Positions 8,493-64,000 of a DNA stretch of 64,000 nt are shown here, piece by piece. Where the stretch lies: the NCBI GenBank assembly GCA_043808095.1, contig JAZDFF010000031.1, forward strand, positions 101,073 to 165,072. Direction: 5' to 3'. Position numbers and translations under genes: made by a program. The notes below the pieces were generated by a model. That model did no database searches, was not told the origin of the DNA, and saw only the letters and a list, made by a program, of their open reading frames with translations. Position 1 is the stretch's first letter. Each line of letters begins with the position of its first letter. This DNA is from Candidatus Omnitrophota bacterium. Lineage in GTDB: Bacteria; Omnitrophota; Gorgyraeia; JAZDFF01.

Positions 8493-9590
8493 ATGAAAAG
8501 GATAAAAATATCTCTAGGCAGCCGCAGTTATAATATCCTCATTGGAAGAGGTGTTTTATCTAGACTTGGTGAGTATTTGAAGGTTTTAAATATTGGGGAA
8601 GATGCCGTTATAATTACAAATCGTACAATTAATAATCTATATGGATTTCGTCTAAAAAGAGTATTAAAAGAAAGTGGGTTCTCAACAAAAATAGACGAGG
8701 TTCCTGACAGCGAAGAAAGCAAGTCTCAAAAAATAGCGCTGTCGCTAATTAACCGTATTGCAAACTATGACCTCAGAAAAAGGTTGTTTATTATTGCCTT
8801 TGGGGGAGGGGTAATAGGGGATTTATCCGGTTTTATTGCCTCAATTTATAAAAGAGGCATCCCTTATATCCAGATACCTACAACGTTACTTGCCCAGGTA
8901 GATTCTGCTATTGGAGGAAAAACTGCGATAGATCTAACTGGTGGGAAAAACTTAGTAGGCGCATTTTATCAACCGCGCCTCGTATTATCGGACATAGACT
9001 TTTTGTCTAGTCTAAGCAGAAGTCAAATGGTTTCAGGTTTAGCAGAGGTCATAAAATACGCCGTTATTAAGGACTCCGTATTATTTCATTATCTAAAGAA
9101 AGAATATAAAAATATACTTTCTTTTAAAAAAGTTCCCTTAGAATATACTGTTTATAAATGCGCCCAGATAAAGGCGAGGATCGTAGAACAAGATGAAAAA
9201 GAAATCAAAGGCAAAAGGACGATTTTAAATTACGGCCATTCTATCGGCCATGCTATTGAGGCCGCCTCCGGGTACAAAGGATATAGCCATGGCCAGGCCA
9301 TAGCTATAGGTATGGTTATTGCAGCCGAAATCTCTTATAAGCTAAATATACTTGATAAAAAATCGTTTCAAGAAATTAAGGAGTTAATTAAGGCATTAGG
9401 GCTTCCAACAAAGGCAAAAAGCGTGAGCTTGTCTTCCATGGTAAAAGCTCTTTATCATGATAAAAAATTTATCCATGGAAAGAATAGATTTGTCTTACCA
9501 AAAAAAATTGGGGAAGTTATTATTTGTGAAGATATACCGACAGAGCTGATTGAAGAGACCTTAAGAGGCAAAAAAAGTATAGGAATTTAG
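8493..9590 (+). CDS. aroB: 3-dehydroquinate synthase
   Basis: GGGVIGDLSGFIAS…DSAIGGKTAIDL…AFYQP signature blocks. Confidence 0.85.
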   Translation: MKRIKISLGSRSYNILIGRGVLSRLGEYLKVLNIGEDAVIITNRTINNLYGFRLKRVLKESGFSTKIDEVPDSEESKSQKIALSLINRIANYDLRKRLFIIAFGGGVIGDLSGFIASIYKRGIPYIQIPTTLLAQVDSAIGGKTAIDLTGGKNLVGAFYQPRLVLSDIDFLSSLSRSQMVSGLAEVIKYAVIKDSVLFHYLKKEYKNILSFKKVPLEYTVYKCAQIKARIVEQDEKEIKGKRTILNYGHSIGHAIEAASGYKGYSHGQAIAIGMVIAAEISYKLNILDKKSFQEIKELIKALGLPTKAKSVSLSSMVKALYHDKKFIHGKNRFVLPKKIGEVIICEDIPTELIEETLRGKKSIGI

Positions 9591-13419: not shown

Positions 13420-14355
13420 GTGGGCTTCATTATTCTAGGCATTTTGATGGTTAGCGGCTGCGCTACCATCTATAATCCTGCAACAGAAAGAAAGGAATGG
13501 GTCTTTATTGATACAAAGCAAGAGGTATCTATCGGCAAATATATCAGTAATCAGGTTAAAAATGAATTTAAGTTTTCTGATGATAAAGAGGCCACTAAAA
13601 GGGTAGAAGGCATAGGTAAAATAGTAGCCGCCTCCTGCGATAGAAAAGATCTCGATTACCATTTTAACGTGGTTAAGGACAAAGAGCTGAATGCATTTGC
13701 CATACCCGGAGGTTACGTCTATGTCCATAGCGGATTAGTTGAGGCCGCAACCGACTCGGAACTCGCCTGTGTCTTGGGGCACGAGATTGGGCATATCGCA
13801 GCAAGACACCCCGTTAAAAAACTTGAAACAGGACTTGGCTACCAAATCGCCATGAGTTTACTATTAGGCCGGTCAAGCCAAGCTGAGATTGCGCGCGGCA
13901 TAGATATTATGTTTAATCTTATATCACTGGGTTATAGCAGAAGCGACGAAAAATTGGCAGATAAGCTTGGAGTTAAATATGCATATAAATCCGGATTTGA
14001 GCCGAATGGAATGATTAGTTTCTTGGGAAAACTCCAGAAGGAAGTAGATAAACGCGGACCCCAACTAAACATCGAATTTTTAAGGTCGCATCCTAATTTA
14101 GCAGAGAGGATTAATTTAATAAGGGAAGAAATCGATTCTCTTGAAAATGCCTCTAGCTCTTTGGATATTTCTACTTTAACGCCAAAACAAGGCGATAAGG
14201 CAACGGCGGGAGAAAAAAATATCACTCCGAGATCTAATTATTCCGAACAAAGCGACGTTGCCTTAAAACCAAAATTCTGCCGGCTCTGCAAAACTCAATA
14301 CCCCGAAAGATTCAAATTTTGCCCCAAGCACGGCATTCTTCTTACCCCTCAATAG
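13420..14355 (+). CDS. M48-family zinc metallopeptidase lipoprotein with C-terminal zinc ribbon
   Basis: HEIGH (LGHEIGHIAARH) motif. GTG start at 13420 gives lipoprotein signal …LMVSGC. The ORF-track N-terminal extension (13189..13419) is a GC-rich repeat island and unlikely to be coding. The C-terminus carries CRLCKTQY…FCPKHG. Confidence 0.65.
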   Translation: MGFIILGILMVSGCATIYNPATERKEWVFIDTKQEVSIGKYISNQVKNEFKFSDDKEATKRVEGIGKIVAASCDRKDLDYHFNVVKDKELNAFAIPGGYVYVHSGLVEAATDSELACVLGHEIGHIAARHPVKKLETGLGYQIAMSLLLGRSSQAEIARGIDIMFNLISLGYSRSDEKLADKLGVKYAYKSGFEPNGMISFLGKLQKEVDKRGPQLNIEFLRSHPNLAERINLIREEIDSLENASSSLDISTLTPKQGDKATAGEKNITPRSNYSEQSDVALKPKFCRLCKTQYPERFKFCPKHGILLTPQ

Positions 14356-18659: not shown

Positions 18660-18677
18660 TATTTTTTTGACTTGACA

Positions 18678-18695
18678 ACCACACAAATGAGTGGT
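18678..18695 (+). promoter_or_regulatory. candidate LexA operator ACCACACAAATGAGTGGT in lexA promoter
   Basis: The inverted repeat occupies the 17-nt spacer between TTGACA (18672..18677) and TATTTT (18695..18700). A perfect version recurs upstream of dinB. Confidence 0.5.
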
Positions 18696-18734
18696 ATTTT
18701 AAGAAAAAGGGCGTTGGGTTTTAAAAAATAAGAT

Positions 18735-19328
18735 ATGGAAGAGCTTACTGAAAAACAGAAAAAAATATTAAATTTCATCCAGGATAAAATAAGGCTGGAG
18801 GGGATTCCGCCCACCATAAGAGAAATAGGCATCCATTTTAAATTTTCTTCAACCGGAACAGTCAGAGATTATCTAAAAATCTTAAGCAAAAAGGGATACC
18901 TAAAAATAGCGCCTCGTAAATCCAGGTCAATAGAGTTATTCAGGCGCCTTGGTTATCGTATACCAATCTTGGCTCAGGTAAAGGCTGGCGAACCAAATCT
19001 TGCTTACGAAAACTTAGAAGGATATCTTGATTTAAACGATTTTTGTTATCGAAAAGACCGGGAGGTCTTCGTTTTAAAAGTAAAGGGAGACAGCATGACT
19101 GGCGCAGGTATCTTAGAAGGAGACCTTATCTTGGTAAGAAAACAACGCATGGCAAAAACAGGAGAAATTATTGTAGCCTTATTAGAAAACAATGAAGCCA
19201 CTGTTAAAAGGTTAAAGAGTAAGGCCGGCCGAGTATATCTTGAGTCGGAAAATGCAAATTATCCACCCATCTATAAAGAATTCAACATTATCGGAAAAGT
19301 AATAGCTACAATTAGAAAATACAATTAG
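18735..19328 (+). CDS. lexA: LexA repressor (S24 peptidase)
   Basis: N-terminal wHTH (LTEKQKKILNFIQ…PTIREIG), and catalytic GDSM…K (KVKGDSMTGAGI…VKRL). Confidence 0.85.
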   Translation: MEELTEKQKKILNFIQDKIRLEGIPPTIREIGIHFKFSSTGTVRDYLKILSKKGYLKIAPRKSRSIELFRRLGYRIPILAQVKAGEPNLAYENLEGYLDLNDFCYRKDREVFVLKVKGDSMTGAGILEGDLILVRKQRMAKTGEIIVALLENNEATVKRLKSKAGRVYLESENANYPPIYKEFNIIGKVIATIRKYN

Positions 19329-19335
19329 GATTAAT

Positions 19336-19623
19336 ATGTTTAACCACCAGGCACGTTGGGATAGGCCCATGCCTTATGACCAGGCGGGTTCTTTAAATGA
19401 GAAGATCTGCGTATTGGCGCTATTTAAGAATGGAAAAATTTATCCTAAGGTTTTTTATTGGAAAAGTAAACCATATCGGATAAAAAATATAACTTATAGC
19501 TGGCAGGTAAGACTAGGGGAAGATATTGTTAGTTACTTTTCCGTAGATGCTGAAAGCGGATTATATGAAATATCCTTTAGCAGCAGGAATTTTTCCTGGG
19601 GGTTAAATAAAATAAATTTGTAA
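19336..19623 (+). CDS. hypothetical protein co-transcribed with lexA
   Basis: 95-aa ORF 8 nt downstream of lexA. No recognisable domain. Confidence 0.35.
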   Translation: MFNHQARWDRPMPYDQAGSLNEKICVLALFKNGKIYPKVFYWKSKPYRIKNITYSWQVRLGEDIVSYFSVDAESGLYEISFSSRNFSWGLNKINL

Positions 19624-19685
19624 AAATATTAATTTGAGTTATAATAATTTATAAAAGAAATGAATAATTAAAGGGAGGGCTTTTT

Positions 19686-20531
19686 ATGGACTTCTTAAAA
19701 GCAATCGGAAAACCTGACGCAATGTTTATTTTATATAGCGTCCTTATTATACCGGGGTTTCTCATCATCATAGGTTTATTGATCTCGGTTTTTAGACAAC
19801 AGGCTAAGTTAACAAAGGATAATATTGCAGATTTAGAAAGGTTAAATAAAAATAACCAGGATCTTCTAAATGAAAAACAGAGATACGAGGCCAGGATTAA
19901 AGAGTTTCAGAATAATCTAAACAAGTCTGCGACAGAGGCCAAAGAAAATGAAAGGATAGCCAATAATCTAAATGATAACTACCAAAAGCTAAAATCTGAA
20001 TTTAGTCAGCTGAAGATTGATTTAGAAAAGAGCCAAAAAACTAACACCGAGGAATTCAAGGCAAGGCAGGAATTGCAGAGGACAAAAGAAATTCTCGAAA
20101 AACAAATCCAGGAATTACAGGGTAAATGCCAAGCCAGGCAAGATGAATTAGATAATCTGGCCAAAGAATTATCCCTGGAGAAGGCAGAGTCTAAGAAACT
20201 AAGAGAAAGAAACCAGCAATTAGAGGCTCAGTCTAAGGTTAAAGAAGTCATCCCTGAAAAAAAGATTGAGCCTCCGCCAAAACCGCAGGAAGAGCCCCCT
20301 AAAGAAGCAATAAAACCTCCCGCGCCTAAAATGCCTGAGGAGGTAATTGAAAAAAAGGAGCCTCCTAAAGAAGCTATAACCCCGCCAGCACCGCAGGTCC
20401 CCAAAGAAAAACCTGTTGATAAAGAAACTTCGCCTGGCAAGCCTTCCAAAATACCCGAGGGCAAAACCATGGAAGAGATAGCCAGAGAATTATCCGCAAA
20501 AGAGCACGATAAAGAGAAAGACAATAAATAA
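19686..20531 (+). CDS. membrane-anchored coiled-coil protein with Pro/Lys/Glu-rich repeat tail
   Basis: TM helix, long heptad coiled coil, then PPKPQEEPPKEAIKPPAPK repeats. Confidence 0.45.
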   Translation: MDFLKAIGKPDAMFILYSVLIIPGFLIIIGLLISVFRQQAKLTKDNIADLERLNKNNQDLLNEKQRYEARIKEFQNNLNKSATEAKENERIANNLNDNYQKLKSEFSQLKIDLEKSQKTNTEEFKARQELQRTKEILEKQIQELQGKCQARQDELDNLAKELSLEKAESKKLRERNQQLEAQSKVKEVIPEKKIEPPPKPQEEPPKEAIKPPAPKMPEEVIEKKEPPKEAITPPAPQVPKEKPVDKETSPGKPSKIPEGKTMEEIARELSAKEHDKEKDNK

Positions 20532-20542
20532 GCACCTGACTC

Positions 20543-20896
20543 ATGGAGAAAAAAATAGCAGTACTTATTGTAGATGATGAGAAAGATATCTGTAATAGTT
20601 TCAAAAATTACCTGGAAAAAAGAGAAATTATTGTAGATATTGCCCTTGATGGGGACAGGGCCAAGGACTTAATAACTACAAAGACCTACGACTATATCTT
20701 TTTTGATTTTAACCTTCCCGGCATACCCGGTATAGAACTTCCTGGCATCATCAAAACGCACAATCCTAATGCTAAAAAATTCATGATTACCGGCTATGAC
20801 CTGGTGACGGATAAATTTCCCCAGTACTTAGAGCTCGATGGCATGTTCAGAAAGCCGTTAAGCCTTGAAGATCTGTACAAGGTGATAGAAAAATAG
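20543..20896 (+). CDS. stand-alone response-regulator receiver (CheY-like) domain
   Basis: VLIVDDEKD, a phospho-acceptor Asp in IFFDFNLP, and a …K… pattern. Confidence 0.6.
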   Translation: MEKKIAVLIVDDEKDICNSFKNYLEKREIIVDIALDGDRAKDLITTKTYDYIFFDFNLPGIPGIELPGIIKTHNPNAKKFMITGYDLVTDKFPQYLELDGMFRKPLSLEDLYKVIEK

Positions 20897-20904
20897 ATTA
20901 GATA

Positions 20905-20937
20905 ATAAGGGCCCTTTTGAGACCCTTATTTTTTTAT
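20905..20937 (+). terminator. putative Rho-independent terminator (hairpin TAAGGG…CCCTTA + T8)
   Basis: ataagggcccttttgagacccttattttttt immediately after the receiver gene stop. Confidence 0.4.
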
Positions 20938-20944
20938 CTTTCTA

Positions 20945-20962
20945 ACCACACAAATGTGTGGT
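20945..20962 (+). promoter_or_regulatory. candidate LexA operator ACCACACAAATGTGTGGT upstream of dinB (perfect 7-4-7 palindrome)
   Basis: Perfect inverted repeat ACCACAC-AAAT-GTGTGGT, followed by a TACTAAT -10-like hexamer, ~30 nt before the probable dinB start. Confidence 0.55.
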
Positions 20963-20989
20963 ACTAATCCCAAAAGAAAAAACGCCAAA

Positions 20990-22150
20990 ATGATAATGCA
21001 TATTGATATGGATGCCTTCTTTGCCTCTGTTGAACAGGCAGTCAACCCTAGATTAAAGGGCAGGCCCCTGATAGTAGGGGCCCGTCAGAATAAAAACTAT
21101 ACTGTTGTCTGTGCGGCGAGTTATGAAGCCAAGGCCTATGGTGTTGACTCCGGCATGCCCACAAAAGAGGCCTTCAGGCTATGCCCGCAGGCGCTATTTA
21201 TAGCCGCAGATACCCATAAATACATATATACCTCAGAGCGCATTCTTAGGTTTTTAGAGGACTACGGATTAGCCCTAGAATACGCCTCCGTGGATGAGTT
21301 TAGGATGGATCTTGAGGGCATTGATCAGGCCAGACAAAAGGCCCTGGCCCATGAGATTAAAGAAAGGATAAAAGAGGGCTTTTGGGGGATTACCTGCAGC
21401 ATAGGCATAGCTAAAAACTGTCTCCTGGCAAAGCTGGCCTCTAAGGTCAATAAGCCAAACGGCCTGTCAATTTTAACCGAAGAAAACCTGGCTGATGTCC
21501 TGGTAAATTTACCGGCAGGAAAACTCTGCGGGGTTGGGCCAAGGACCCGGGAAATCTTAGCCTACTTAGGGATAAATACCTGCCTGGATTTATGGCATAC
21601 CCCGGAAGAGATTTTAACCCGTTATCTAGGACAGGCAGGCCTCGATCTTTATACCAATTTACATCGCTTAGAAACCCTGGGGTTTAGCCGGGAAAAATTA
21701 CCGCCAAAATCCATAGGGCATTCCTATACTTTACTAAGAGCAATCCAGGATCCTGAACAAATAAATAGTTGGTTAAGGATTTTGGCGGAAATGGTGGCAT
21801 TTCGCTTAAGAGAGGCTGATTTAGAGGCCAAAACTACCTGTATCTGGCTAAACCTAGTTGATAAAAAGGCCATTTTTAATAGCCAAAAGACCTATAATTT
21901 AGCCACCAATGATGGCTATGAAGTCTGGCTAAGGACCCGGCAAATAATGGCTAAAATCAGGCATCCTAGGCCTAAAATCAGGGCATTGGGAGTGACTTGC
22001 TCAGGCCTAAATACCCCCCAAATAAAGCCCCTTTTTAAGGAGATGCAGAATAGGGAGGACCTGCTTAAAAGCACAGATTTAATTAATAGAAAATATGGGC
22101 AGTGGTCCATTTATCCTGCCAGCCTACAGACTACCAGAAAACACCTGTAA
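20990..22150 (+). CDS. dinB: DNA polymerase IV (Y-family)
   Basis: MIMHIDMDAFFASVEQ N-terminus. The ORF-track start at 20954 lies inside the palindrome; the ATG at 20990 is more plausible. Confidence 0.85.
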   Translation: MIMHIDMDAFFASVEQAVNPRLKGRPLIVGARQNKNYTVVCAASYEAKAYGVDSGMPTKEAFRLCPQALFIAADTHKYIYTSERILRFLEDYGLALEYASVDEFRMDLEGIDQARQKALAHEIKERIKEGFWGITCSIGIAKNCLLAKLASKVNKPNGLSILTEENLADVLVNLPAGKLCGVGPRTREILAYLGINTCLDLWHTPEEILTRYLGQAGLDLYTNLHRLETLGFSREKLPPKSIGHSYTLLRAIQDPEQINSWLRILAEMVAFRLREADLEAKTTCIWLNLVDKKAIFNSQKTYNLATNDGYEVWLRTRQIMAKIRHPRPKIRALGVTCSGLNTPQIKPLFKEMQNREDLLKSTDLINRKYGQWSIYPASLQTTRKHL

Positions 22151-27062: not shown

Positions 27063-27153
27063 CTGCCCATCCCTCCCAGAGATTAATTCTTATAGGGCGT
27101 CACAAAAGTGTCGCCCTTGGCTGGAACGTGTTTTGTGACAGCCTAATTAATTC

Positions 27154-39704: not shown

Positions 39705-39777
39705 TACTAAAAAATCCCCCTTTCTAACTACAGGCTTACGCCTGTAGAATTCCCCATACGTAAGTATGGGGTAAACG

Positions 39778-45175: not shown

Positions 45176-46897
45176 TCATTTTTTAATTGTTTTAAGCAAT
45201 TTTTCGACTGATAAACTATTAAGAACGTCTTCCTTCTCCAGCCATCCGCGCCGAGCAACCGAAAGACCTAAATGCATAGAATAAAGCTGTTCAGCAGTAT
45301 GGCTATCTGTGCCAAGAGAAATCTTAACGCCCCACTCCTTAGCCTGACGGCAGTGCAGGTCATTTAAATCCAGTCGATTGGGAAAGGTATTAATCTCTAA
45401 GGCAGTATTAGTATCTTTAGCCACAGACAAAACCTTTTCAAAATTCAAAGGATAGCCATCGCGGCTGCCCCAGAGCCTTCCGGTGGGATGTGCGATAATA
45501 TGGACGTATTTATTTTTACAGGCCCGGGTAATCCTTTTAGTGAGTTGTTCGCTTGATTGTTTAAATCCCGAATGTATTGCCGCAACCACAATATCAAATT
45601 CCTTTAAAACCTCATCCTTATAATCAAGTTCGCCCTGGGAATTAATATCGACCTCTGTACCGTAAAGAATCCTAAAATTTGAAAGTTTTTTGTTCAGTTT
45701 ATCGATCTCGTTTTTCTTCTTATTTAACTGCCCGATAGTCAGGCCTCTGGCAATCTTAAGGCTCTGTGAGTGGTCAGTTACAGCAATATAACTAAATCCT
45801 ATTTTTTGGGCGGCATTGGCCATCTCTAAAATAGAGCTGCCTCCGTCAGACCAGGTAGAATGCGCATGCAGGTCGCCTTTGATATCGGAAAATTTGATAA
45901 GCTCTGGGAGTTTGTGGGCTAGGGCTAATTCAATCTCTCCGGTATCCTCGCGTAGTTCCGGCTCAATATAATCAAGACCTAAAATCTTAAATATCTCCTC
46001 TTCTGTTTTGCCGCAAACAAAGGTTTCGCGGGCCCCTTTAACCGAAAATACCCCGTACTCATTTATCTTTAATTTCTTTTTTATGGCCAGTTGCCTTAAT
46101 TTGATGTTAAGGTTTTTTGAGCCGGTAAAGTACATTAGCGCAGCACCGAATGATCGCGATTTTACCGCCCTCAAATCTACCTGAATGCCTTCATGCGTAA
46201 GTATTGAGGACTTTGTTTGCCCTTTTGCTAAAACATCCTTTACCCCAGGTATCCTTACAAATACCTCCATGATTTTTTCAGGATGCGCGGAAATTACCAG
46301 GATATCGATATCGCGCACGGTCTCTTTCATCCGCCGCAATGAACCGGCAACGCTGATTTTACTCACTTCTTTTAATTTTTCCAGAGGACTGATAAAGTCG
46401 CTTGATGCTGACATGGCTTTAGCCAAAGGCATACGCTCCCTGCCTTTTTTGATCAGCTCAATACCTTTTAAAATATTCTCGACCGTCTTCTCTTTGATAT
46501 TAGGCAGTCCCAATAATTTTCCGCTTCGGGCAAATTTCTCCAGACTATCAACATCCTGCATTTTTAGTTCATCTAATAATAATTTTGCGGTTTTAGGGCC
46601 TATTCCTGGAATATCCAGGATCTCCAGGAATCCTTTAGGAATTTGTCTTTTTAAGTCTTCATAAAATTTAAGATGTCCGGTCATAATGATTTCTTTTATC
46701 TTTCTTTCCAGGTCTTTTCCTATTCCCGGCAATTCCCTGAGCCTGTCCTGATTGGCGTATTCAATAATATCCTCGGTCATCCCCTCTAGATTCAAAGCGA
46801 CCCGTTCATAGGCGCGTATCCTAAAAGGGTTGTCGCCTTTAATTTCCAAAATCTTGGCAATATTTCTGAAGATTGAGGAGATTTCTAGATTTTTCAT
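45176..46897 (-). CDS. polX: family X DNA polymerase with C-terminal PHP 3'-5' exonuclease domain (PolX)
   Basis: HhH motifs (LPGIGKDLERKI, IPGIGPKTAKLL), Pol-beta nucleotidyltransferase GS…DID, and PHP HAHSTWSDG…TDH. Confidence 0.8.
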   Translation of the reverse strand: MKNLEISSIFRNIAKILEIKGDNPFRIRAYERVALNLEGMTEDIIEYANQDRLRELPGIGKDLERKIKEIIMTGHLKFYEDLKRQIPKGFLEILDIPGIGPKTAKLLLDELKMQDVDSLEKFARSGKLLGLPNIKEKTVENILKGIELIKKGRERMPLAKAMSASSDFISPLEKLKEVSKISVAGSLRRMKETVRDIDILVISAHPEKIMEVFVRIPGVKDVLAKGQTKSSILTHEGIQVDLRAVKSRSFGAALMYFTGSKNLNIKLRQLAIKKKLKINEYGVFSVKGARETFVCGKTEEEIFKILGLDYIEPELREDTGEIELALAHKLPELIKFSDIKGDLHAHSTWSDGGSSILEMANAAQKIGFSYIAVTDHSQSLKIARGLTIGQLNKKKNEIDKLNKKLSNFRILYGTEVDINSQGELDYKDEVLKEFDIVVAAIHSGFKQSSEQLTKRITRACKNKYVHIIAHPTGRLWGSRDGYPLNFEKVLSVAKDTNTALEINTFPNRLDLNDLHCRQAKEWGVKISLGTDSHTAEQLYSMHLGLSVARRGWLEKEDVLNSLSVEKLLKTIKK

Positions 46898-49833: not shown

Positions 49834-50025
49834 ATACTGGTATCGAAACCGGTCTTCGATATTCGGGGCTCGATTTTTTTCATCATGTCTTCAAGCTTCC
49901 AGATTCCAGCCTCGATACAAGCATTCATAACTTAAAACCAGATTCAAGCATCTTTTGTCATCGGGGTATACGAAGTGTTGACATTATTGACATTAGGCGA
50001 ATTATATGTTAAAACTAAGCCACAT

Positions 50026-52206
50026 ATGGAGATCAAATCTCTTTCTAAAAAGTTTAATCTGCCCGAAGAATTGGTAAAGACCTTAGAGTCAGCCGGCCTC
50101 ACTAGCTTCTATCCACCCCAGGCCATGGCTATTAAAAGAGGCATATTAGACGGCGGAAATTTTGTTCTATCCTGTCCTACGGCTTCAGGAAAAACCCTGG
50201 TAGCAGAATTGTGTATGCTTAAAGACATTCTTCTGCATAAAAATAGGTGTCTTTATGTCGTGCCTCTTAGGGCCCTGGCCAGCGAGAAATACGAAGACTT
50301 TAAACAAAAATACAGCCGCCTGAATATTAAGGTAAATATTTCAACCGGAGAATTTGATACCAGCGGCCGAGACCTCGGAGGTTTTGATATCTTAATCGCC
50401 ACTTGCGAAAAAGTCGATTCGCTACTTAGGCAACGCTGTGAATGGCTTACAAATAATTTAGGGACAGTCGTCTTCGATGAAGTGCATTTTTTGAATGATC
50501 CAAGCCGGGGCCCAACTTTGGAGATATTAATATCCCGCATCAGGCAATTAAATTCCCGGACGCAGATTCTGGCATTAAGTGCTACTATAAGCAACGCCGT
50601 TCAAATCGCTAAGTGGTTAAATGCACAACTTATTGAAACTGACTGGAGGCCGGTGCCCCTAAAAGAAGGCGTTTATTTTGAGGATAAAATAAATTTTGAT
50701 GACGGAACCAGCAGGATTATAAATTTGGATATTAAACATGACATCGCAAAACTTGCCCTCGATACAGTTGGTGACGGGGGACAGGCCCTGGTATTTGTAA
50801 ACACCCGGGTATCTACCCAAACCCAGGCAAGGCTTATTTCAAAAGAGGCCTCAGGTTTTATTAAAGAGAGTGATAAAAAAGCCTTAACACAGATATCAAA
50901 AGAAATCCTCAATACCTTATCTGAACCTACCAAGATCTGTAGAAGGCTTGCTGAAACTGTAGCTGGAGGTATAGCCTTTCACCACGCAGGCCTGCATCCT
51001 AAACAAAGAAAGATAGTCGAGGATTATTTTAAGAAAAATATAATTAAGGTAATCTGCGCGACCCCGACTCTGGCCGCCGGAGTAAACCTGCCCAGCCGAA
51101 GGACCATTATCCGGGATTTTAAAAGATATTCGCCCGGCCTGGGACAGGATTTTATCCCGGTCTTTGAGTACAAGCAGTTTGCAGGGCGCGCCGGCCGGCC
51201 TCAATATGATAAAGTTGGCGAGTCTGTTCTCGTTGCCAAGACCGCGCTTGAGCGCAAGATGCTTTTTAGTGAATATGTCTACAAAGACCCTGAACCGATC
51301 CAATCAAGGCTGAATAATGTTGCAGCACTACGCACCCATGTCTTATCATGCATAGCTTCGGGATTTACGCATACGAGAGATGATTTATCCAGCTTCTTTA
51401 AAACCACCTTCTACGCCTTCCAAAATAATTCCCGGGATTTATCTTATGCCCTAGAATCTATCCTAAACTTTTTAAAAAATGAAGGCCTGATAAAAGAATC
51501 CCCGCATAATCTTAAGGCAACGATATTCGGTATACTCGCAAACAGACTTTATATTAACCCCCTCTCTGCCGTGATTATAAGAAACGGACTAAAAAAAGCC
51601 CGTACAAACACAAAGTATTTTTCCTTACTGCACCTTGCCTGCTGCTGCCCTGAAATCGAAGCCCTTGCCTTAAATAGGAACGATTACGAGGGCCTGAATC
51701 TATACTATGACATGAATGCAGATGAATTACTGCTTTCCTATGATGACCTGTCTGATTTATTTGACTTAGAGGATTATTTGGGTCAACTTAAGACTGCCTT
51801 AATGCTTGAAAAATGGATGGAAGAAGAAAAAGAAGAAATAATCTGCGAAGAATTTAAGGTTGGCCCGGGAGATATCCGAAGAATCATCGAAAGCGCGGAT
51901 TGGCTCGTGTATTGCTGCCATAAATTTGCCAGGCTCCTCGGCCATAAGGAGTTACTTGCCAAGATTGATCAGTTATCCACAAGGATAAACTACGGAATAA
52001 AAGAGGAATTACTGGAATTGGTAGGGCTGCGTGGCGTTGGTAGAGTCAGGGCCCGCAGCCTCTATAACCACGGATTCAACAGTTTGTTTAAAATCAGAAA
52101 CGCTAATATTAAGACTCTGGATAAAATTCCGCATATCGGAAAAAAAATTGCAATTAATATTAAGGAACAGCTCTTGAAGAACTCCTTGAGATTAATGCCT
52201 TATTAG
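50026..52206 (+). CDS. Hel308/Ski2-like superfamily-2 DNA helicase
   Basis: Q-motif FYPPQ, Walker A SCPTASGKT, DEVH box, motif VI QFAGRAGR, and a C-terminal HhH (GLRGVGRVRARSL). The start was chosen at MEIKSL. Confidence 0.8.
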   Translation: MEIKSLSKKFNLPEELVKTLESAGLTSFYPPQAMAIKRGILDGGNFVLSCPTASGKTLVAELCMLKDILLHKNRCLYVVPLRALASEKYEDFKQKYSRLNIKVNISTGEFDTSGRDLGGFDILIATCEKVDSLLRQRCEWLTNNLGTVVFDEVHFLNDPSRGPTLEILISRIRQLNSRTQILALSATISNAVQIAKWLNAQLIETDWRPVPLKEGVYFEDKINFDDGTSRIINLDIKHDIAKLALDTVGDGGQALVFVNTRVSTQTQARLISKEASGFIKESDKKALTQISKEILNTLSEPTKICRRLAETVAGGIAFHHAGLHPKQRKIVEDYFKKNIIKVICATPTLAAGVNLPSRRTIIRDFKRYSPGLGQDFIPVFEYKQFAGRAGRPQYDKVGESVLVAKTALERKMLFSEYVYKDPEPIQSRLNNVAALRTHVLSCIASGFTHTRDDLSSFFKTTFYAFQNNSRDLSYALESILNFLKNEGLIKESPHNLKATIFGILANRLYINPLSAVIIRNGLKKARTNTKYFSLLHLACCCPEIEALALNRNDYEGLNLYYDMNADELLLSYDDLSDLFDLEDYLGQLKTALMLEKWMEEEKEEIICEEFKVGPGDIRRIIESADWLVYCCHKFARLLGHKELLAKIDQLSTRINYGIKEELLELVGLRGVGRVRARSLYNHGFNSLFKIRNANIKTLDKIPHIGKKIAINIKEQLLKNSLRLMPY

Positions 52207-52946
52207 ATTTTTAATAGTCGTGCTGAGTGCGGTCTTTTCTCCAGATGAAAACTCAGGAAATTCGTTAGCAGATTATATAGCTCTCCCCTAATTTTAAGGC
52301 CTATCCCCAACCTTAAGGCCTCCTGCAAGTTGGAATCCTCAATATGGCAAATTGTAGCAATGGTTCCCCTTAAGATATTTTTTGAGGGATAGCGATCGTG
52401 CTGGCCGCATTTTAAACAAACCAATCCTCCTCGATTAAAGTTGAATTTAGCAGCCTCCTGGATCTTCCTGCCGCAGACGAGACACGAATCAAGATGAGGC
52501 CTGAATCCCGATAGCATCAATGCCTTAATCACAAAGATATGGAATATTTTATCCGCATCATCTGTAATGCAGAAATTCTCTAAGGTCCATAAAGTCAGCG
52601 TAAAAACCTCAGGGTTTTTATCATCAAGTGGCATGAGATAATCAATAAGCTCCATAATATAACTACTCAATGTAAATGTTTTTAAATCCTTTTTTAAAGA
52701 AGTGAAGTCATCATGCTTTTCAAAATGCGTAACGAGATTAAGTTCAGTCTTCGTCTTTTTGTAAAAAATCATCTCGCCAAACTTTAAGGGTTCGATGAAC
52801 CCGCCAAATTTTTGGGGCTCGGTCCTTGCGCCTTTAAGAATGCCTTTTATCTTACCAAAGTCGCGGGTAAAAAATACGGCAATCTTACTTGTCTCCCTAA
52901 AATCGTATGTCTTTAAGACTATTGCCTCGGTTTTTTGGATGGCCAT
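52203..52946 (-). CDS. recO: DNA repair protein RecO
   Basis: MAIQKTEAIVLKTYDFRETSKIAVFFTRDFGKIKG OB-fold N-terminus, and zinc motif CLVCG…CLKCG. The start was moved to 52946 to exclude the repeat-derived extension. Confidence 0.8.
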   Translation of the reverse strand: MAIQKTEAIVLKTYDFRETSKIAVFFTRDFGKIKGILKGARTEPQKFGGFIEPLKFGEMIFYKKTKTELNLVTHFEKHDDFTSLKKDLKTFTLSSYIMELIDYLMPLDDKNPEVFTLTLWTLENFCITDDADKIFHIFVIKALMLSGFRPHLDSCLVCGRKIQEAAKFNFNRGGLVCLKCGQHDRYPSKNILRGTIATICHIEDSNLQEALRLGIGLKIRGELYNLLTNFLSFHLEKRPHSARLLKI

Positions 52947-52974
52947 TCTCTTGATAATTATAAAACTAATGGAA

Positions 52975-53050
52975 CACGAATGGACACTGATTACCCCGTG
53001 GAATTCGGAGAATTCCCGGGACTTAGTCCCTGAAATTGCAATTAAAATTG
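52975..53050 (-). repeat. MITE-like structured repeat, family A/B in reverse orientation (hairpin variant GAAATTGCAATT-TTAA-TTGCAATTTC)
   Basis: The reverse complement reads …ggaaattgcaattttaattgcaatttcagggactaagtcccgggaattctccgaattcc…. Confidence 0.5.
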
Positions 53051-53159
53051 CAATTTCTAGGGGCACGCATCTGCCTGGCCGGCAGGCAGGAATAAACACG
53101 AATTTGTCTTCGGAATTTATTCGTGAGAATTCGTGTATCAGTTATGTAAAGATTAATAA

Positions 53160-60618: not shown

Positions 60619-63600
60619 TCACCATTTAAAAGTAAGGACGCTTCCCCCCAGCAAATCTTCTAAGCTGGTGATAAGCTCTTTGGTTGGCTGGATATAAAAA
60701 TCCTCTCCCACAATGATTTGAATTCTACGGCTAGTCGCCGAAGGGATATGCAGATACACCGGGACCTTGCCCGGCGAGGTAAGAAGTTTATCCTTGAGCA
60801 TCATCAGCAGGCTGTCTTTAGGATTAGGCATATCTATATATATGGAAGATATAGACTTAAATGCATATTCGATGGGCAAAAGATTATTGCTGATGATTTT
60901 AGGGCTTTCTTCTTTTAGGCTCAGTTTTCCTTTAATCAAAACTACACTATGTGGCTTTAGATAATGCGAGACCTTCTGAAAAACCTTGGGAAAAACTAAG
61001 ACCTCTGTCGATCCGCCAAGATCCTCGAGTTTTAAAATGGCCATGCGTTCATTTTTATCACGGGTGGTTACTTGTTTTATTGCACTTAGTAGACCTCCGA
61101 TACTTATTTCTTCTCCTTCTTTATGGTTAACCAAATCCACTACCGAAGCATTGGTAAATCTCTTAATTTCAACCTCGTAGCGCGCCAAGGGATGTCCAGT
61201 AACATAAAAACCAAGAATCTCTTTTTCAAAACTTAATACCTGTAGCTTTGGCCATTCGTTAATCTTAGGGATTTCCTGTAGCCGATTCACAAATGTTTGA
61301 TTGGCTCCTCGCTGGTCGAAAAAGGAAAGCTGGCCACTGCTTCTTTCCTTCTGGATACTCGCGGCCATATCTAGGGCACTATCTAAGATAGACATTAATT
61401 GTGCCCGATATAAGCCAAAACTATCAAAGGCCCCGCATTTAATTAAACTTTCGAGCACCTTGTGGTTTACTAACCTTAAATCAACTCTTTCGCAGAAATC
61501 ATAAAGCGACTTAAACTTTTCCGAAGCCCTCTCCTTCAAAATTGATTCAATAGCGCCCCTGCCCACATTTTTAATAGCAATCAATCCAAAACGAATGACC
61601 TTATCTTTGACAATCGAGAAATTCGCCATGCTCTCATTTATGTCCGGAGGAAGTATCTTTATCCCCATGCGGTTTGCTTCATTGACATATTCCACGATTT
61701 TATCGGTATTATCTTTTTCGCTGGTGAGTAATGCGCTCATAAATTCAGTGGGATAGTTTGCCTTTAAGTAGGCAGTCCGATACGATATCACCGCATAGGC
61801 GGCAGAATGAGACTTGTTAAATCCGTAGCCAGAGAAAAACTCTACTAAAGCAAAGATTTTCTCAGCGATCCTGCGGTCGATCTTTTTATTAAGACACCCG
61901 ATTATAAACTCTTTTCTCTGGGTCTCCATAACTTCAGGAGTCTTTTTGCTCATCGCCCGTCTTAATAAATCAGCCTGGGAGAGCGAAAAACCCGCAAGTT
62001 CCGAGGCAATCCTCATGACTTGCTCCTGAAAAACAAGGATTCCGTAGGTCTCTTTTAAAATTGGCTCTAAACTTGGATGGTCATAGATAATCGGCACCTG
62101 TGCGTGCTTTCGTTTCATAAAATCATCAAGCATGCCGCTACCTATGGGGCCAGGACGGTAAAGCGCTAATAATGCAATCAGATCCTCAAATTTTGAAGGC
62201 ACCAGTTTTTTCAATAAATCGCGCATTCCCGAACTCTCAAGCTGAAACACCCCCATTGTCTCTGCCTTGGCAAGGAGTTTATAAGTCTTGGCGTCATCAA
62301 GAGGGATATTTCTGATATCTAAATCCACACCGTGTATTTTTTTTATTAGTTTGACGGTCTCACTGATAACCGTGAGAGTCCTTAGACCCAAAAAATCCAT
62401 TTTCAATAAACCGATTTTCTCCAAGGCCTCCATAGGATAACCGGTAGTAATCTGCCCCTCTCCTACCTTACACAGTGGCACATAATTTGTCAGAGGTATA
62501 TCTGCAATAACGACACCTGCGGCATGGACCGAGGCATGGCGGGTCAAACCTTCCAGACTTAAGGCGGTGTCAATAAGTTCTTTTATCCTTTCGTCGTTAT
62601 CATAAAGGTTGCGTAATTCCGATTCACTGCGCAGCGCATCCCTAAGCCGGATATTGGAATCAAAAGGAACGAGTTTGGCAATCCTGTCTACCTCAGGATA
62701 ACTAATACCCATAACCCTACCCACATCCCTTATTGCCGCCCGGGCCTGCATCGTCCCAAAGGTAATAATTTGGGCAACGCTGTCTTTGCCGTATTTTTCT
62801 GTTACATATTCAATGACCTCTGGCCGGCGTTCATAGCAAAAATCAATATCAATATCAGGCATACTAATTCGCTCGGGATTAAGAAATCTTTCAAAGATTA
62901 AATTATATCTTAGGGGGTCAATATCAGTTATGCCTAAGATATAGCTTACCAGGCTCCCTGCAGCCGAGCCTCTTCCCGGACCAACGGGAATAGAATTTTC
63001 CTTGGCATAACGGATAAAATCCCAGACAATCAAAAAATAACTGCTAAAACCGGTTTTCTCGATAATCTTTAATTCATGATTAAGCCTACTTTCTATTAAA
63101 GGTGTCACCTCTTTATATCTTTTGGTTATTCCTAGAAGACAGAGCTTTTTTAAATATTCCTCTTTGGACAGATTGTCAGGCGGATCATAACGCGGCAAAT
63201 GCGATTTGGTAAAATCTAATTCCAGGTTACATTTTTTGGCAATCTCAAGGGTATTAGTTATGGCCTGGGGCACATCTTTAAAGAGATGCTTCATTTCCTC
63301 GGGGCTTTTAAAATAAAATTCATCGGTCTGAAAACGCATATGGTTGGGATCATCAAGCGTAGACTGGGTCTGGATACACAGAAGCGCTTCATGGGCCTTG
63401 GCCTCATTTTTGTATAAATAATGGATGTCATTAGTGGCAACCAGAGGAAGATTCAAATCCTTGGAAGCCTTAATCAAGGCCTCATTGACTAATTTTTGTT
63501 CCGGGATCATATTTTCCTGTAGTTCAAGATAAAAATTGCCTTTTCCTAAAGTCTTAGAAAACTCATCAGCGACTTTGTACGCCTCTTTAATCTGGTTTTG

Positions 63601-64000
63601 TTGAATCAGACAAGGGATCTCGCCCTTTAAACAGGAGGATAAACCAATAAGCCCTTTTGAATATGCAGCTAATATTTCTTTATCAATCCTGGGCCGGTAA
63701 TAAAATCCCTCTAGATAACCAAATGAAACCAATTTCATCAAATTACCGTATCCTTCTTCGTTTTTAGCTAAAAGTATAAAATGGTGAGATGCCTCCTGGA
63801 TACTGATTGAAGTCTTTTTAAATCTGCTTTCAGGGGCAATATAGACTTCGCATCCGATTATCGGTTTTATGCCTTGGTTTAAGGCCTCGTTGTAAAACTC
63901 TACGGCACCAAAAAGATTGCCATGGTCGGTAATGGACAATGCGTCCATCCCATTTTTTTTAGCAAGTGAGACGATGTCGCTGATTTTACAGGCGCCGTCA
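60619..64000 (-). CDS. dnaE: DNA polymerase III alpha subunit, 5'-partial (start beyond window end)
   Basis: PHP N-terminal …ITDHGNLFGAVEFY…, a polymerase core, and an OB-fold. The reading frame continues open to nt 64000. Confidence 0.9.
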   Translation of the reverse strand, partial: DGACKISDIVSLAKKNGMDALSITDHGNLFGAVEFYNEALNQGIKPIIGCEVYIAPESRFKKTSISIQEASHHFILLAKNEEGYGNLMKLVSFGYLEGFYYRPRIDKEILAAYSKGLIGLSSCLKGEIPCLIQQNQIKEAYKVADEFSKTLGKGNFYLELQENMIPEQKLVNEALIKASKDLNLPLVATNDIHYLYKNEAKAHEALLCIQTQSTLDDPNHMRFQTDEFYFKSPEEMKHLFKDVPQAITNTLEIAKKCNLELDFTKSHLPRYDPPDNLSKEEYLKKLCLLGITKRYKEVTPLIESRLNHELKIIEKTGFSSYFLIVWDFIRYAKENSIPVGPGRGSAAGSLVSYILGITDIDPLRYNLIFERFLNPERISMPDIDIDFCYERRPEVIEYVTEKYGKDSVAQIITFGTMQARAAIRDVGRVMGISYPEVDRIAKLVPFDSNIRLRDALRSESELRNLYDNDERIKELIDTALSLEGLTRHASVHAAGVVIADIPLTNYVPLCKVGEGQITTGYPMEALEKIGLLKMDFLGLRTLTVISETVKLIKKIHGVDLDIRNIPLDDAKTYKLLAKAETMGVFQLESSGMRDLLKKLVPSKFEDLIALLALYRPGPIGSGMLDDFMKRKHAQVPIIYDHPSLEPILKETYGILVFQEQVMRIASELAGFSLSQADLLRRAMSKKTPEVMETQRKEFIIGCLNKKIDRRIAEKIFALVEFFSGYGFNKSHSAAYAVISYRTAYLKANYPTEFMSALLTSEKDNTDKIVEYVNEANRMGIKILPPDINESMANFSIVKDKVIRFGLIAIKNVGRGAIESILKERASEKFKSLYDFCERVDLRLVNHKVLESLIKCGAFDSFGLYRAQLMSILDSALDMAASIQKERSSGQLSFFDQRGANQTFVNRLQEIPKINEWPKLQVLSFEKEILGFYVTGHPLARYEVEIKRFTNASVVDLVNHKEGEEISIGGLLSAIKQVTTRDKNERMAILKLEDLGGSTEVLVFPKVFQKVSHYLKPHSVVLIKGKLSLKEESPKIISNNLLPIEYAFKSISSIYIDMPNPKDSLLMMLKDKLLTSPGKVPVYLHIPSATSRRIQIIVGEDFYIQPTKELITSLEDLLGGSVLTFKW

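Follow-up and report, generated by a model that had tools for sequence, protein, structure and literature searches.

The 64-kb stretch of DNA analysed here (the window) comes from a Candidatus Omnitrophota bacterium (contig JAZDFF010000031.1, positions 101,073 to 165,072) and carries lexA, a small open reading frame directly behind it (ORF95) and, further downstream, the Y-family polymerase gene dinB. Two copies of one palindrome, one in front of lexA and one in front of dinB, are very likely operators for the organism's own LexA repressor, as judged by comparison of sequences. A lineage-specific LexA operator on lexA and a Y-family polymerase gene, as proposed in the first-pass annotation of this DNA, is supported by the retention of the palindrome in the lexA promoters of related species, by its enrichment over chance and by its co-variation with the LexA recognition helix. 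The dyad is a variant, by two bases per half-site, of the Gram-positive CGAACA-N2-TGTTCG geometry and is apparently undescribed for this phylum.

Two palindromes upstream of lexA and dinB

The lexA gene (18735–19328, plus strand) encodes a protein with a winged-helix DNA-binding domain (PF01726) and an S24 autopeptidase domain (PF00717), which passes the NCBIfam LexA equivalog TIGR00498 with 182.5 bits against a cut-off of 110.95. Its recognition helix reads STGTVRDYL. The Ala84–Gly85 cleavage site, Ser120 and Lys158 are invariant in the alignment with relatives, and the presence of the Ala-Gly site and the Ser/Lys pair in the window LexA makes its RecA-dependent inactivation plausible. The dinB gene (20990–22150, plus strand) encodes a DNA polymerase IV-like Y-family polymerase according to Pfam (IMS and IMS_C) and the NCBIfam Pol IV models. 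The two databases agree on both genes and bear out the identities assigned to them earlier. The dinB start at 20990 (MIMHIDMDAFF) fits the family, and the ATG selected by the program that called the open reading frames, at 20954, falls inside the box.

In the lexA promoter, the −35 hexamer TTGACA (18672–18677, plus strand) abuts the palindrome ACCACACAAATGAGTGGT (18678–18695), which deviates from perfect symmetry by one mismatch, T to A at 18690. The final T of the palindrome opens the −10 hexamer TATTTT (18695–18700, plus strand), so the palindrome fills the spacer of exactly 17 nucleotides (nt) and overlaps the −10 element; the unstranded operator core, CCACACAAATGAGTGG, spans 18679–18694. 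A consensus promoter scan calls this promoter independently as TTGACA-17-TATTTT, scoring 10 of 12 matches, and the −10 is preceded by a TG. The second copy, ACCACACAAATGTGTGGT (20945–20962), is a perfect 7-4-7 palindrome located 27 nt 5′ of the dinB ATG, with an equally unstranded core, CCACACAAATGTGTGG, at 20946–20961. It stands in the same register as the lexA copy relative to two weak hexamers, from which a dinB promoter may be proposed: a −35-like TTTCTA (20939–20944, plus strand) and a −10-like TACTAA (20962–20967, plus strand). The spacers of both copies are identical (AAAT). With up to two mismatches allowed, these are the sole matches in 64 kb, where 0.01 are expected, and two sites occurred in none of 100 shuffled sequences. 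The positions of the palindromes, their symmetry and the occupation of the 17-nt spacer had all been described in the first-pass annotation, and sequence and promoter scan confirm them.

The −35 of lexA is overlapped by a second upstream copy, TTGACT (18667–18672), and the resulting segment (TTGACTTGACA, 18667–18677) offers two possible −35 registers 5 nt apart. When up to three mismatches in the 12 core bases are allowed, the window holds 10 copies against 6.7 expected; two of them are intergenic and neither was accepted as an operator. One (CCCCATAC-TTAC-GTATGGGG, 39754–39769) is a hairpin between an aminoacyl-tRNA synthetase gene, which it directly follows, and a gene for pyruvate phosphate dikinase, and the other (GGCGACAC-TTTT-GTGACGCC, 27098–27113) is an imperfect GC-rich hairpin after a ParA-CBM48-like gene. 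Both are probably terminator or stability elements.

Conservation of the dyad and its pairing with the LexA recognition helix

An alignment of the window LexA with 48 relatives served as the query by which 80 LexA loci were drawn from species-representative genomes (loci fetched for comparison are labelled L011, L203 and so on). About 31 of the 80 belong to the Omnitrophota clade, and the rest to Fibrobacterota, Ignavibacteria, Myxococcota, Elusimicrobia, Firmicutes and others. Since these loci were chosen by protein and not by DNA motif, they provide an unbiased test of the dyad. The nearest relatives of the window LexA (53–86% identity) are nearly all labelled Omnitrophota or Omnitrophica. 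One relative, P0069, whose LexA shares 54% identity with the query, is recorded as 'Thermoproteota archaeon', and several others are labelled Planctomycetales or Clostridia; these labels are probably binning or labelling artefacts in records of metagenome-assembled genomes.

The dyad is present, mostly perfect and with at most three mismatches, in 28 of 32 Omnitrophota-clade lexA loci. In all 28 it lies in the spacer of the lexA promoter, starting 1–2 nt 3′ of a TTGACA-like hexamer and running into the TA that opens the −10, either immediately before lexA or leading a short operon with lexA among its genes. In two of the four loci in which it is missing, the upstream sequence is limited, to 165 nt in one and by a run of N in the other. 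A logo of 29 sites compiled from lexA loci reads TTGACA-N1-2-CCACACA-N2-TGTGTGG-TA, with 1.3–2.0 bits per core position and variable flanks and central two bases. Every one of the 29 sites has TTGACA 1–2 nt ahead of the core; in each arm, the outer six positions of the core hardly vary, and the half-site ACAC or GTGT is intact in 27–28 sites. The unit originally proposed, ACCACAC-N4-GTGTGGT, stands as a dyad, but its boundaries have to be moved to CCACACA-N2-TGTGTGG: the inner A is retained in 25/29 sites and the inner T in 24/29, and the outer 5′ A in just 15/29. At the 3′ end the outer T is well conserved, yet it doubles as the start of the −10, and TA occupies these two positions in 28–29 of the 29 sites. 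In 26 of 29 relatives a T occupies the position of the mismatch in the window lexA copy, and the dinB copy is perfect; by analogy with E. coli, this suggests that LexA may hold lexA more loosely than dinB.

Perfect CCACAC-N4-GTGTGG sites number 19 in 456 kb of Omnitrophota-clade loci, against 0.03 expected, and neither perfect nor one-mismatch sites occur in 741 kb of outgroup loci. In 882 kb of Omnitrophota-type DNA, every locus has one promoter-embedded site and no more, in each case in the promoter of the lexA cassette. A metagenome scan with the exact 18-mer CCACACAAATGTGTGGTA returned at least 120 loci, at least 72 of which have the site at the head of a lexA operon, most with a full TTGACA and typically in the order LexA–ORF95–DinB. 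No viral contig matched the exact 18-mer.

The box co-varies with the recognition helix of LexA across lineages, and the outgroups hold other dyads in the same −35/−10 slot. The CCACAC dyad of the Omnitrophota clade is paired with STGTVRDYL, a GTGCAC-type dyad in Ignavibacteria with ST[FY]GVKRHL, a TGCNC-type dyad in Fibrobacter with STNGVRSIL, the GAAC dyad of Firmicutes with S[PT]STVH.HL and, in the outgroup locus L203, CTGAACAAATGTTCAG with STNGVREHL. Small changes in the box accompany small changes in the helix: CCGCAC (L036) occurs with STGSVRDHL, and the CCATAC/AGCGG and CCACTC/GGCGG boxes (L021 and L023) with STATVRDHL. Among the metagenomic LexAs encoded behind the exact site, 66 of 72 have STGTVRDY-type helices, and the LexAs of a GC-rich lineage with the same box have STGTARDHL. 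Locus L035, from the Omnitrophota isolate DeMMO3_15, combines an E. coli-like box (CTGTATAAATATACAG, of the CTGT-N8-ACAG type, upstream of lexA at 411) with the helix SPNAVQDHL in a LexA of 46% identity. It represents either a second LexA type inside the phylum or a mis-binned contig.

Known LexA boxes and rival explanations

LexA is unusual among bacterial regulators in that its binding motif has changed repeatedly. The Gram-positive SOS box (Cheo box), CGAAC-N4-GTTCG, is recognized by LexA (DinR) of Bacillus subtilis and its relatives. Written as CGAACA-N2-TGTTCG and set against C(C)ACACA-N2-TGTGTG(G), it has the same spacing, the same inner bases and four of six identical bases per half-site. 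Both palindromes sit in the lexA promoter, and a canonical winged-helix/S24 LexA binds the Gram-positive one and presumably the one described here. The Omnitrophota dyad differs by GA to AC in each half-site, does not conform to the GAAC consensus, is conserved one base further out (CC/GG), and is paired with STGTVRDYL instead of S[PT]STVH.HL. Intermediate half-sites are found in the same promoter slot of outgroup lexA promoters. In the low-GC outgroup locus L203 (33% GC), cTTGACAg-CTGAACAAATGTTCAG-TATATT (2973–2988) occupies this slot at the head of an ORF95-like–dinB–lexA operon; the occurrence of the cassette behind a GAAC-type box shows both cassette and promoter design to be older than the CCACAC variant. 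The Fibrobacter-type LexA box is TGCNC-N4-GTGCA. The Fibrobacter and Ignavibacteria boxes share with the Omnitrophota dyad the CAC-N4-GTG core, the spacing and the place inside a TTGACA/TATAAT promoter, but have TG/GT in place of CA/CC as outer bases and STNGVRSIL or ST[FY]GVKRHL as helices.

To our knowledge, no experimentally verified LexA box has the sequence of the Omnitrophota dyad, and no published Omnitrophota LexA motif was found in the literature. The E. coli SOS box is CTGT-N8-ACAG and serves a regulon of more than 40 genes (PMC8565304). The two systems have a common logic, with an autoregulated LexA, an operator over the promoter and dinB under its control, as well as a ydjM homolog in a related lineage. 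They differ in half-site and spacing, the dyad does not follow the CTGT/ACAG pattern, and the regulon visible here is the size of a cassette. For Balneolaeota, motif discovery on lexA promoters, comparative genomics and electrophoretic mobility shift assays defined the LexA motif TTACACATATTTTWTACATA (PMC7739468). It is likewise a phylum-specific motif found by the same approach, its first half-site, TTACACA, agrees with CCACACA in five of seven bases, and its regulon is centred on translesion polymerases. The Balneolaeota motif is a direct repeat verified by mobility shift, whereas the Omnitrophota dyad is a palindrome known here from sequence. The motif lists of both papers (PMC8565304, PMC7739468) omit the Omnitrophota dyad. 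The earlier impression that the palindrome resembles no familiar LexA box holds for the E. coli pattern and fails for the Gram-positive box, with which it shares geometry and most half-site bases.

If the palindromes are LexA operators, a LexA dimer with the helix STGTVRDYL would bind the 16-bp dyad CCACACA-N2-TGTGTGG, and because the dyad spans the −35/−10 spacer and the start of the −10 at both promoters, bound LexA would block RNA polymerase. DNA damage would lead to RecA-stimulated self-cleavage of LexA at Ala84–Gly85 via Ser120 and Lys158, which would free both promoters and yield more LexA, more of the ImuB-C-like ORF95 product and more of the translesion polymerase DinB. A single box would govern the lexA–ORF95–dinB operon in most Omnitrophota. 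Here and in the nearest relatives of this genome, ORF95 and dinB are separated by unrelated genes that have a promoter and a terminator of their own, and the second box would keep dinB under LexA.

Several observations weigh against such operators. The weak hexamers before dinB are not called as a promoter by the consensus scan. Other DNA repair and replication genes of the window are free of the box, namely those for PolX with a PHP domain (45176–46897), a Hel308-like helicase with an archaeal-type domain 4 (49975–52206), RecO (52203–53099) and DnaE (60619–63948). The enrichment that the first-pass annotation predicted at recA, uvrA, imuAB and ruvAB was not seen in the DNA examined, though this DNA held no Omnitrophota recA: a tblastn search of all fetched DNA with an approximate E. 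coli RecA query found recA solely in the Elusimicrobia outgroup locus L038. RecA was not found in the 64-kb window either, and the induction step draws on general knowledge of LexA. The metagenome sample, having been picked on the perfect 18-mer, is uninformative on weaker sites.

A different DNA-binding protein, such as a repressor encoded elsewhere, might use the dyad to control lexA and dinB, as the dyad is unlike the verified LexA boxes that we know of or that are listed in PMC8565304 and PMC7739468. This is unlikely, because the dyad tracks lexA across the phylum and shifts together with the LexA recognition helix, and because no other regulator gene is conserved beside the site: the ORF95 product is all-beta, and the response regulator encoded in the window consists of a receiver alone and is lacking in relatives. 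Autoregulation through a site in the lexA promoter, where the dyad lies, is the hallmark of LexA. Another suggestion is that the palindrome works as an RNA hairpin, in the role of a terminator, attenuator or stability element. The perfect copy does fold at −10.5 kcal/mol (z = −4.2), and symmetric variants such as CCGCAC...GTGCGG (L036) would keep pairing, but at lexA the palindrome sits between −35 and −10, 5′ of the transcript start, in 28 loci, the lexA copy of the window carries a mismatch that breaks the stem, and neither copy is followed by a U-tract. The actual terminator-like hairpin lies just 5′ of the dinB box, and a role of the palindrome in RNA is very improbable. That the window has no more than two copies and that both share the spacer AAAT could point to a recent duplication and so to a chance repeat or a dispersed repetitive or mobile palindrome with no regulatory role. 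Against this stand the expectation of 0.01 sites, the retention of the site in orthologous promoters of dozens of species while the flanks diverge, and its absence from outgroups, from viral contigs and from places outside promoters in 882 kb; such an origin is hardly credible. Operators for LexA thus remain by far the most probable reading of the two palindromes.

Each newly defined LexA motif adds a point to an evolutionary series and makes the SOS regulons of the group predictable. Omnitrophota are a large uncultured phylum, for which dyad and helix together allow damage-inducible genes to be predicted straight from metagenomes. Being a near-minimal step from the Gram-positive box, with natural intermediates in sister lineages, the dyad is also convenient for studying shifts in winged-helix specificity. 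The general understanding of the SOS response is unchanged by this finding.

The lexA–ORF95–dinB cassette and its split in the window

ORF95 (19336–19623, plus strand) begins 8 nt after lexA, is annotated as hypothetical and is conserved between lexA and dinB. Clustering at 90% identity divides its family into at least 510 groups, every one of them annotated as hypothetical; at 50% identity there are 731 representatives, almost all of them stand-alone proteins of 80–105 residues. ORF95 has no Pfam match at default thresholds, no NCBIfam match and no sequence match in the PDB. Weak matches to the Pfam family DUF6504 (PF20114) are found in 19 of 23 members (best E-value 2e-6), with the window protein below the gathering score. 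No paper on DUF6504 was found in the literature searched. The AlphaFold (AF2) model is an all-beta structure of six strands over residues 22–94, with a pLDDT of 82 that exceeds 90 in the core; compared with PDB folds, it gives nothing significant (best E-value 0.7). W88 is invariant in 23 sequences of the family. The family is found next to Y-family polymerase genes in several lineages: all three distant members with downstream sequence lie directly 5′ of such a gene, which one of them overlaps by 4 nt. Among the distant members, one is part of an ORF95-like–dinB–lexA operon with a GAAC-type box, and another follows a partial open reading frame with a LexA-like C-terminus.

Stand-alone ImuB-C proteins were described by Aravind, Anand and Iyer in 2013 as having about 80 residues, mainly β-strands and a conserved C-terminal Trp, with genes mostly beside dinB in operons that often also encode LexA (PMC3765255). 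In size, fold class, the invariant W88 and the dinB and lexA neighbours, ORF95 fits a stand-alone ImuB-C domain protein, and these features make this its probable assignment. Given this match, the cassette type is already described; the earlier work covers the proteins and not operators, and ORF95 meets DUF6504 below threshold only.

By tblastn with the window genes, lexA, an ORF95 homolog and dinB are found head to tail in 21 relatives, mostly with gaps of tens of nt or overlaps and with a few inserts of 0.3–1.5 kb. None of the 21 has a second box before dinB, from which the ancestral unit can be deduced as one box driving lexA–ORF95–dinB. The first-pass annotation counted lexA and dinB as a LexA regulon with a common operator. 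The shared box stands, but the two genes are not independent members of a regulon; they are the ends of a split lexA–ORF95–dinB operon.

In the window, the inserted unit starts with a promoter-like TTGTAA-16-TATAAT that has no box (19618–19645, plus strand). It is followed by ORF281 (19686–20531, plus strand), which has an N-terminal hydrophobic segment, a coiled coil and a Pro/Lys-rich tail and matches no Pfam family (NCBIfam gives coiled-coil-type noise), and by the gene of a receiver-only response regulator of 117 residues (20543–20896, plus strand; PF00072). Both are inserted cargo, and neither has a tblastn match in L001–L080. Next comes a terminator-like hairpin (AUAAGGGC...CCCUUAU) with U7 behind it (20905–20935, plus strand; −9.7 kcal/mol, z = −2.4), which would shield dinB from transcription that starts at the lexA promoter.

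The two loci with the closest DinBs among the metagenome matches listed (L108 and L113, 63–69% identity) have ORF95, an insert, a terminator hairpin with a T-run, a box in a promoter, and dinB. The insert differs in each, with an open reading frame of 57 residues in L108 (321–720) and a 146-residue protein with a signal-peptide-like N-terminus in L113 (806–1411). The same layout in the window and in these loci marks the separate operator-bearing dinB promoter as a conserved feature of the sub-lineage, with a gap before it that accumulates cargo. In the split operon, regulation would be maintained through the second operator. The ORF95–dinB gap (19618–20935 in the window) holds different self-contained cargo in each of the three, followed by terminator and dinB box, and looks like an insertion hot spot. 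In L098 and L192, a receiver-only response regulator unrelated in sequence to that of the window is encoded between lexA and ORF95, which implies that receiver domains entered the cassette twice.

Among the metagenome matches listed, the box is directly before dinB in six loci (L093, L101, L108, L113, L116 and L175) and before ORF95 in four (L110, L119, L140 and L184). About 19 GC-rich contigs among them (53–64% GC; loci within L086–L199) have an identical 18-mer that abuts the ATG of a divergent Y-family polymerase gene, for example at 8750–8767 in L087 and 1509–1526 in L143, with TTGACA 12 nt from the 18-mer. The divergent polymerase is about 28–34% identical to the window DinB over the longer alignments, and the contact between box and ATG suggests a leaderless transcript. 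On the other strand, the gene of a YdjM-family membrane protein (PF04307) starts about 80 nt away. In E. coli, ydjM is a member of the LexA regulon.

Locus L181 has a DinG/Rad3-type helicase gene after lexA in a box-headed operon. Other genes of such operons belong to the mobile-element or defence type (NYN, RhuM/Fic, MEDS and C5 methyltransferase). Extra genes right behind the box occur in L082, L142/L174, L147, L091 and L181; they are NYN-domain or RhuM/Fic genes ahead of lexA, a C5 cytosine methyltransferase gene in L091, and the helicase gene of L181. The visible regulon is small and centred on the cassette. A lack of further copies genome-wide, put forward in the first-pass annotation as a reason to reject a LexA operator, is for this reason unsound ground for doing so. 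We tentatively consider, as a possibility with less than even chances, that the SOS response of Omnitrophota has shrunk to a self-contained mutagenesis cassette, in which the LexA operator would govern little besides lexA, the ImuB-C-like protein and Pol IV, leaving recA and excision repair outside, and in which selection would be strong enough to retain an operator-bearing dinB promoter whenever inserts split the operon.

Locus L011 is a case of cassette decay with the lexA box retained. It is without ORF95, has just a 107-residue remnant of the DinB C-terminus (13856–14179), and carries glycosyltransferase-like and TPR genes after lexA. The presence of ImuB in this locus was considered and rejected, as the weak Y-family match is this remnant only. 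L011 shares downstream genes with the window, namely DUF134 and, by eye, the ParA-CBM48-like and GH57-like open reading frames.

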